Assembly: GCF_045037415.1 (NCBI RefSeq) | Contig: NZ_CP173438.1 | Length of the DNA: 64,000 nt | Source of the DNA: Escherichia coli | Lineage (GTDB): Bacteria; Pseudomonadota; Gammaproteobacteria; Enterobacterales; Enterobacteriaceae | Strand: one strand, 5' to 3' | Shown: piece after piece, positions 26,918 through 27,814 of the stretch | Numbering within the stretch: position 1 is the first letter of the stretch | How the letters are laid out: each line of letters opens with the position of its first letter | Program-made: the position numbers and the translations under genes | The notes under the pieces: model-generated | The model's input: the letters and a program-made list of their open reading frames with translations, nothing else | What the model was told of the DNA's origin: nothing | The model's database searches: none

Positions 26918-27814
26918 ATGGACATTTTTATTTCGAAAAAGATGCGCAATTTCATTTTATTAGCGCAAACCAATAATATTGCCCGGGCGGCAGAAAAAAT
27001 CCATATGACGGCTTCGCCATTTGGCAAAAGCATTGCCGCGCTGGAAGAACAAATTGGCTATACGCTATTTACCCGCAAAGATAATAATATCAGCCTCAAT
27101 AAAGCCGGACAGGAACTGTATCAAAAACTGTTCCCGGTTTATCAACGACTTTCTGCGATTGATAATGAAATCCATAACTCAGGACGTCGTTAACGAGAAA
27201 TTGTGATAGGCATAGATAATACTTATCCGACAATTATTTTTGATCAGTTGATTAGTCTCGGAGATAAGTACGAAGGCGTGACCATCCAGCCAGTTGAGTT
27301 CAGCGAAAATGGCGTTATCGATAATCTTTTTGACCGTCAGTTAGATTTTATTATCTCCCCACAGCATGTATCTGCACGAGTTCAGGAACTGGAAAACCTG
27401 ACTATCAGTGAACTACCACCGCTGCGATTGGGCTTTCTCGTTTCTCGCCGTTATGAAGGGCGACAGGAGCAAGAGCTGCTTCAGGAGCTGCCCTAGCTAC
27501 AAATGCGCTTTCAAAACCGGGCTAACTTCGAAGCAATGATTGATGCGAATATGCGTCCTTGTGGGATCAATCCAACCATTATTTATCGTCCCTATAGTTT
27601 TATGGCTAAAATCAGCGCCGTGGAGCGGGGACATTTTCTGACGGTGATCCCGCATTTTGCCTGGCGACTGGTGAATCCGGCAACGCTGAAATATTTTGAT
27701 GCGCCGCACAGGCCGATGTATATGCAGGAATATCTTTATTCAATCAGAAATCATCGTTATACCGCCACGATGCTTCAGCATATTGCTGAAGATCGTGACG
27801 GGACAAACCATTAA
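26918..27814 (+). pseudogene. ygfI: LysR-family regulator ygfI interrupted by two in-frame stop codons
   Basis: One continuous 299-codon frame split into three track ORFs (26918, 27203, 27503, all in the same frame) by TAA at 27191..27193 and TAG at 27494..27496; the HTH domain is intact. Confidence 0.7.

Follow-up and report, generated by a model that had tools for sequence, protein, structure and literature searches.

What has become of a regulatory gene whose reading frame is preserved over its full length and is nevertheless interrupted by two nonsense codons, and in which order did it and the neighbouring operon decay? This question is raised by srsR (formerly ygfI) in the window analysed here, a stretch of 64,000 nucleotides of Escherichia coli DNA. 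A preliminary description had reported a complete 299-codon frame for a LysR-type regulator with one TAA and one TAG codon and without indels. It had interpreted this as recent pseudogenisation by point mutation beside a decayed sbm (scp) operon, which was taken for the likely regulatory neighbour of the gene. The account that we reach is a lineage-fixed pseudogene: loss of scp in B2, drift of srsR, the nonsense mutation S92*, and then W193* at a Dcm hotspot. We assign a probability of roughly 80% to this account as a whole. The features on which the analysis is based are the following.

26751..26917, plus strand: region upstream of srsR, from the yggE terminator hairpin to a G-rich ribosome-binding region; ancestral, non-B2 state
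26918..27814, plus strand: srsR (ygfI) pseudogene, frame of a LysR-type regulator broken by two internal stops; same allele as in JJ1886 and AVS0155
26939..27112, plus strand: part of srsR that matches HTH_1 (Pfam PF00126; residues 8-65); codons 1-91 agree with the B strain
27191..27193, plus strand: first nonsense codon TAA (formerly TCA, Ser92), at the boundary between linker helix and effector domain; 551 genomes
27492..27496, plus strand: former Dcm site CCTGG, now CCTAG; G→A at 27495 gives the W193 amber codon; recurs in other lineages
27660..27664, plus strand: other Dcm site CCTGG, at Trp249, intact in the window; the only second CCWGG in srsR
27811..27963, minus strand: 3' remnant of scpC, 153 bp, convergent with srsR, 4-nt overlap
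27940..28865, minus strand: 5' remnant of scpA (sbm), 926 bp; deletion junctions at 27950-27964 (15-bp imperfect repeat) and 27979-27988 (10-bp repeat)

The reading frame and its two nonsense codons

Translation of positions 26918-27814 on the plus strand yielded a single indel-free frame of 299 codons (MDIFISKK...DGTNH*), interrupted only by TAA as codon 92 (27191-27193) and by TAG as codon 193 (27494-27496). The reverse strand of the same interval contains no long frame and has stops throughout. When aligned with the intact orthologue of an E. coli B strain (srsR/ygfI, 897 bp, L002:9001-9897), the frame showed no gaps and 24 substitutions, 16 of them synonymous, which corresponds to a nucleotide identity of 97.3%. 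At the protein level residues 1-91 of both sequences do not differ at all. Two or fewer stops in 298 random codons would be expected with p ~7.5e-5, but the identity of 97.3% to an intact gene is the stronger argument for a formerly functional frame.

The ancestral sense codons could be recovered by alignment with orthologues, as the preliminary description had suggested. Comparison with the B strain and other E. coli demonstrated that codon 92 was changed from TCA (Ser92) to TAA by a C→A transversion at position 27192, and codon 193 from TGG (Trp193) to TAG by a G→A transition at position 27495. In none of the 20 other orthologues compared does Trp193 vary. Codon 92 likewise encodes an amino acid throughout this set, Ser in most cases; Ser92 is conserved within Escherichia and Citrobacter and variable in more distant genera. 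Both the complete frame without indels and its inactivation by point mutation were thus borne out, the latter in agreement with the NCBI PGAP annotation.

Using the intact orthologue, Pfam assigned an HTH_1 domain (PF00126) to residues 8-65 (E=3e-13) and a LysR_substrate domain (PF03466) to residues 89-283. Pro34 is invariant in 22 of the 22 sequences compared. The N-terminal winged helix-turn-helix of a LysR-type regulator is therefore encoded in the window with the same residues 1-91 as in the B strain protein, whereas the effector-binding domain, which belongs to the same chain, is encoded but cut at codons 92 and 193. Judged from its sequence, the gene is a LysR-type regulator by descent and would not be a working one. 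High identity and the position between yggE and the scpC remnant identify it as an orthologue of srsR/ygfI. It corresponds to the gene for K-12 SrsR/YgfI, for which the name DhfA has also been proposed, with a nucleotide identity of 97.3% and the same yggE-srsR-scpC position.

Base for base, the allele of the window is the same as in strain AVS0155 and in the ST131 reference JJ1886, and in both genomes PGAP annotates a pseudogene with the remark "internal stop". The gene itself is carried by 5,405 of 5,426 complete E. coli genomes at an identity of at least 95%; the nucleotide identities observed were 97-100%. The RefSeq/PGAP entries of JJ1886 (P423_RS30555, identical in sequence to the window) and of O157:H7 TW14359 (ECSP_RS33790) are both labelled 'LysR family transcriptional regulator SrsR, internal stop'. 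The pseudogene of the window is thus already recorded in public annotation and is an ordinary dead gene. Neither the ancestral codons nor the succession of the two mutations is given in these entries, and they are likewise silent on the Dcm context and on the link to the scp deletion. A published report of an srsR pseudogene was not found in the literature searched.

Over 18.9 kb the window and AVS0155 differ by one 1-bp indel. This sole difference is located in the scpA remnant at 28693-28698, where the run of G is five long in the window and six long in AVS0155, TUM10828 and S87. Either a strain-specific change in a dead remnant or a homopolymer sequencing error could account for it.

Distribution and order of the stops

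The 5,426 complete E. coli genomes were searched with 41-base queries centred on each stop and a 28-base seed, so that each match must include the stop. The TAA query was found in 551 genomes, including a record titled O25b:H4-ST131, and the TAG query in 844. Exact 99-mers allowed the TAG codon to be assigned to its background: 524 genomes carry it on the ST131 background and 319 on an O157:H7-type background, among them EDL933 and O55:H7 CB9615. The preliminary description had called the pseudogenisation recent. This holds at the level of the lineage but not at the level of the strain, since the allele has become fixed in ST131-type genomes, hundreds of which carry it.

For joint genotyping of both positions we relied on chimeric queries with exact matches. 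A 344-base query combining TAA with the ancestral TGG matched two genomes, TUM10828 and S87, in which the frame is stopped only at codon 92. The reciprocal chimera, TCA with TAG on the ST131 background, gave no exact match in any genome. The counts imply about 26 TAA genomes without the TAG core; the joint genotype was read in the two named strains. Because two genomes combine TAA with TGG and none has TAG alone on the ST131 background, the sequences indicate that S92* preceded W193* and that W193* was a second hit in an already broken gene.

Together with the existence of intact orthologues in which both stop positions are sense codons, these data place srsR of the window among the unitary pseudogenes: the lesion is real and heritable (551 and 844 genomes, with a single-stop intermediate), and the affected clade shows relaxed constraint, although in a small sample.

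The W193 amber codon at a Dcm site

The ancestral sequence CCTGG at 27492-27496 is a site of Dcm methylation, and G27495 pairs with the inner cytosine of CCAGG on the bottom strand. A G→A change at 27495 is what is expected from deamination of 5-methylcytosine, because the G is paired with the methylated inner cytosine. Only two CCWGG sites are present in srsR, at Trp193 and at Trp249, and both can produce an amber codon. The genes dcm and vsr themselves are located outside the window.

The same TAG at codon 193 was also identified in O157:H7 TW14359, where the gene is annotated as a pseudogene, in the chicken strain Z1323CEC0015, which differs by 2 nt from O157 in this gene, and in the type strain of E. 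albertii with flanking SNPs of its own (TTG CCC TAG TTA CAG). The codon therefore occurs on three backgrounds, ST131-type, O55/O157-type and E. albertii. An amber codon at Trp249, the second Dcm site, was present in one genome, SFE8, and this gene is annotated as a pseudogene as well. As a control we searched for the G→A change at the adjacent unmethylated position of codon 193, which would give TGA; it was found in none of the 5,426 complete E. coli genomes. The mutation is thus a G:C→A:T change of the G that lies opposite the methylated inner C of CCWGG, and it recurs in separate lineages with no excess at the adjacent unmethylated position. Dcm sites are described as hotspots of G:C→A:T mutation (PMC2715241, PMC13250602).

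We infer from this pattern that W193* probably arose by deamination of 5-methylcytosine on the bottom strand of the Dcm site CCTGG, and that the same hotspot has probably given the identical amber codon independently in the O55:H7/O157:H7 lineage and in E. albertii. Import of the TAG from O157-like DNA by recombination was also considered and judged unlikely. The stretch around 27495 in which the window matches O157 ends at the SNPs 27466 and 27556, so that an imported tract would be shorter than 90 bp; intact B2 alleles share this tract, and E. albertii has its own flanking SNPs.

A well-known counterpart exists in lacI, in which amber hotspots at Dcm sites were reportedly found by Coulondre et al. 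in 1978. The lacI hotspots at CCAGG/CCTGG are caused by deamination of 5-methylcytosine, which is countered by Vsr very-short-patch repair. Like these, the srsR mutation is a G:C→A:T change at the methylated position of CCWGG that makes an amber codon, recurs at one nucleotide and is absent from the adjacent unmethylated position. The lacI hotspots come from a laboratory mutation screen, whereas srsR would be a case of natural parallel evolution across lineages and species, with a dependence on Dcm that is deduced from the sequence context.

The recurrence of TAG in orthologues also bears on another explanation, namely that the stops are sequencing or assembly errors, or that they are read through or recoded in a programmed manner so that the full-length protein is still made. 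The otherwise perfectly preserved frame would agree with this, and both stops are followed by C. A stop codon followed by C is a weak termination context. Error was rejected, as the 897 bp are identical across hundreds of independently sequenced complete genomes. Recoding is opposed by the sense codons at both positions in 20 of 21 species representatives, by which neither stop is a conserved one, and by the TAA-only intermediate, which is predicted by stepwise decay. In addition, the two stops differ (TAA and TAG), neither is UGA, and both would need readthrough; full-length SrsR is for this reason probably not made. The preliminary description had stated that stops shared with orthologues would point to a peculiarity of annotation or translation rather than to decay. 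Such sharing does occur for TAG, in O157:H7 and E. albertii, but it is accounted for by the mutational hotspot and not by a peculiarity of translation. Error or recoding is thereby effectively refuted.

Deletion of the scp operon

Strains with an intact locus show the order argP, scpA-meaB-scpB-scpC and then srsR, which is convergent with scpC and overlaps it by 4 nt. The decay of the sbm operon beside srsR was confirmed, since in the window a 153-bp remnant of scpC is fused to a 926-bp remnant of scpA. The junction is a compound of two deletions, one of about 4.3 kb between imperfect repeats of 15 bp (TCAATGRTRGTGCGG) and one of 53 bp between repeats of 10 bp.

JJ1886 and the EPEC strain E2348/69 are among the 1,108 genomes in which this B2-type junction was detected. 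The srsR frame has stayed open in about half of the genomes that carry the deletion, and six sampled B2 strains have this combination (A0 34/86, ATCC 25922, a poultry strain, GPEC859, AGR6137 and N47). Because the junction is present in 1,108 genomes and TAA in 551, and because the six B2 strains have lost scp while srsR is open, the sequences indicate that the scp deletion in B2 is older than the srsR stops.

Loss of the operon is not required for the death of srsR, because the gene also died next to an intact scp in O157:H7, 13P484A, SFE8 and E. albertii. W193* of O157:H7 is adjacent to a fully intact scp operon, and scpC is kept in 13P484A (srsR Q185*) and in SFE8 (srsR W249*). The srsR stops are hence no direct or necessary consequence of scp loss.

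The two-part junction was also observed in Z1323CEC0015, HH45 and HH97, which have a non-B2 background (also at L053:2528-2568), with the other variant of each repeat. Compared with positions 27940-27990 of the window, this points either to repeated deletion at identical microhomologies or to one old deletion followed by recombination of its flanks. Strain 405 shows a frameshifted scpB beside an intact srsR.

Other features of the window are mentioned here for completeness. Between argP and rpiA (about 30103-30333, plus strand) an ORF of 76 amino acids is located, which is annotated in related genomes as 'LysR substrate-binding domain-containing protein' and looks like the remnant of another LysR-family gene. 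Upstream of epd (about 17790-20195, minus strand) the window encodes a PPC-domain DNA-binding protein and an ECF-transporter cluster made up of ATPase, T and S components. At this place glpX-fumE-yggC is found in the B strain, which indicates a lineage-specific replacement island.

Relaxed constraint on srsR in B2

Selection was analysed with six B2 and eight non-B2 srsR alleles. The dN/dS ratio was 0.52 within B2, compared with 0.045 among non-B2 E. coli and 0.05-0.07 between Escherichia species. Segregating missense and synonymous sites were found in a ratio of 11:6 in B2 and 9:46 in non-B2 strains (Fisher test, p=2.8e-4). For the adjacent control gene yggE the corresponding ratios in the same strains were 4:24 and 7:33, and the difference between srsR and yggE within B2 was significant as well (Fisher test, p=9e-4). 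A general effect of comparing close relatives was rejected as the reason for the high B2 value, as the yggE control does not show it. In the 741 bp of yggE (26010-26750) the six B2 strains segregate at 24 synonymous sites, in the 897 bp of srsR at six; this fourfold difference is possibly due to recombination in yggE.

The B2 missense changes (P34R in the recognition-helix motif, E130A, G172D, L174H, R201W and A234D) affect positions at which the orthologues compared show no variation. Other independent lesions were identified in B2 too. The 3' end of srsR is deleted in E2348/69, AHB7 has an in-frame deletion of two codons (and an argO gene with an internal stop), and strain 1448 carries an IS1 insertion in srsR. 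Upstream of the gene, a 10-bp direct repeat (TTTTCTGTAA twice, 26805-26824) is kept with both copies in the window and in non-B2 strains, and one copy is lost in the B2 strains A0 34/86 and ATCC 25922. This loss may have an effect on the srsR promoter.

The state of the N-terminal domain is relevant for a further alternative, which had already been raised in the preliminary description in a simpler form. According to this the 91 residues of DNA-binding domain and linker helix are still made, dimerise and occupy SrsR boxes without responding to the effector, as a neofunctionalised mini-repressor. The identity of residues 1-91 with the functional K-12/B protein, including Pro34, would fit such a product, and the region upstream of srsR has remained ancestral in the window, unlike in other B2 alleles. 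The stop is placed exactly at the domain boundary (helix-turn-helix 8-65, effector domain from 89), and structures of stand-alone LysR DNA-binding constructs of 90-101 amino acids have been solved, some of them with DNA (5xxp, 3m1e/4ihs/4iht, 5fo5, 9iyz). However, the ST131 genomes contain only one class of SNP and are too similar for a test of N-terminal conservation, one ST131-type genome has IS1 in the gene, and sister B2 lineages have damaged the same domain by P34R, so that the clade gives no sign of selection to keep it. We regard a functional mini-repressor as quite improbable.

Another alternative is that loss of SrsR was positively selected in successful pathogenic clones (ST131, O157:H7) for the loss of its stationary-phase, biofilm and H2O2 regulon, in which case the repeated appearance of W193* would be due to selection and not solely to a hotspot combined with neutrality. 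Indeed, srsR was independently inactivated and fixed in two globally successful lineages (at least 524 and 319 genomes), the gene was hit separately elsewhere (Q185*, W249*, IS1 insertions and a 3' deletion), and SrsR of K-12 affects biofilm formation and peroxide tolerance (PMC9181523). The counts per lineage, however, mirror the sampling of clones and not separate events. The recurrence at one site is explained by the Dcm context, given that TGA occurs in 0 genomes, and a second stop in a dead gene and a nearly neutral dN/dS in B2 suit drift better. Adaptive loss is thus unlikely in our opinion, and drift, as in the account favoured here, is the reading that we follow below.

Linkage of srsR and scp across species

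Synteny was scanned with one genome per species, which covered SrsR orthologues of 64-100% identity. In all 42 of 42 species-representative loci scpC-scpB-meaB is located directly downstream of srsR in convergent (tail to tail) orientation. The loci belong to Escherichia, Citrobacter, Salmonella arizonae and diarizonae, Klebsiella, Kosakonia, Yersinia, Yokenella, Pluralibacter, Superficieibacter and two oddly named records. On the other flank argO-yggE is missing from 12 of the 42 loci and unrelated neighbours are found instead. A conserved divergent partner upstream of srsR in the genera without argO-yggE was considered and rejected, as the upstream contexts are all different. An apparent N-terminal frameshift in srsR of Escherichia sp. 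MOD1-EC7003 turned out to be a 6-bp in-frame deletion.

The two oddly named records, 'Aeromonas sp. RU39B' (L033, SrsR identity 90%) and 'Martelella alba' (L049, 64%), contain srsR-scpC-scpB-meaB under names of non-enterobacterial genera. They may be mislabelled or contaminated assemblies or may reflect horizontal transfer of the whole module.

Published data on the function of SrsR come from K-12, where the protein is intact. Genomic SELEX identified yfdO/P, fucA/P, dinJ, bluR, paaZ/A and cdgI as targets (PMC9181523), and ChIP-exo and RNA-seq identified dhaKLM and formate genes (PMC9068703). The K-12 protein thus binds yfdO/P, fucA/P, bluR, paaZ/A, cdgI and dhaKLM, and the copy in the window cannot make the effector domain. 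The scp operon is not mentioned as a target in either the genomic SELEX or the ChIP-exo study, and a link of ygfI/srsR to sbm/scp was not found in the literature searched. The published SrsR box TCAGATTTTGC (PMC9181523) gave four matches with one mismatch in the 64-kb window, which is no more than expected by chance, and none of them is located in 28866-29067 near the scpA promoter. The convergent layout of srsR and scpC also differs from the divergent layout typical of LysR regulators.

The earlier suggestion of sbm as regulatory neighbour of srsR therefore has no counterpart among the K-12 targets; indirectly it is favoured by synteny and by the B2-specific relaxation of constraint. The strict srsR-scp synteny and the clade-specific relaxed constraint lead us to put SrsR forward as a candidate regulator for the sleeping beauty mutase operon. 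A more far-reaching proposal is that SrsR is the missing dedicated regulator of the cryptic sbm/scp operon (succinate to propionate), which was missed in K-12 as the operon was silent or the inducer absent. That srsR is lost or decayed in ST131 and other B2 strains, in O157:H7 and in E. albertii would then represent repeated abandonment of the pathway in Escherichia. We put this forward tentatively, as a possibility that is more doubtful than probable.

Discussion

The results can be combined in the following history. The gene srsR and scpA-meaB-scpB-scpC are inherited as one five-gene module across Enterobacteriaceae. An ancestor within B2 lost about 4.3 kb of scp by deletion between the short imperfect repeats, after which srsR evolved in a nearly neutral manner in B2, with radical missense changes at invariant residues, small deletions and an IS1 insertion. 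In a sublineage that includes ST131, the C→A transversion created S92*, and G→A at 27495 then added W193*, probably via deamination of 5-methylcytosine. Translation is predicted to end after residue 91, ahead of the effector-binding domain. The loss of srsR was presumably tolerated since the scp operon, to which the gene is genomically tied, was already gone, and it was probably neutral.

Decay of a regulator after loss of a linked operon is known from the reductive evolution of host-adapted enterobacteria. The B2 locus shows the same sequence of events, the scp deletion first, then relaxed constraint on srsR and varied independent lesions. Unlike in plain decay after operon loss, the regulatory link between srsR and scp is putative, and srsR also died in lineages that keep scp.

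For the biology of E. coli the sequences suggest that ST131 and O157:H7 have no functional SrsR protein; the regulator has been studied only in K-12, where it reportedly acts on biofilm formation, on tolerance of peroxide and on fucose and dihydroxyacetone genes. The regulon maps of K-12 SrsR would accordingly not be transferable to ST131 and O157:H7. W193* would furthermore be a natural example of a Dcm hotspot that produced the identical nonsense mutation in separate lineages and species. As identical nonsense mutations can arise separately at such a hotspot, shared stop codons would be evidence neither of common descent nor of recoding.
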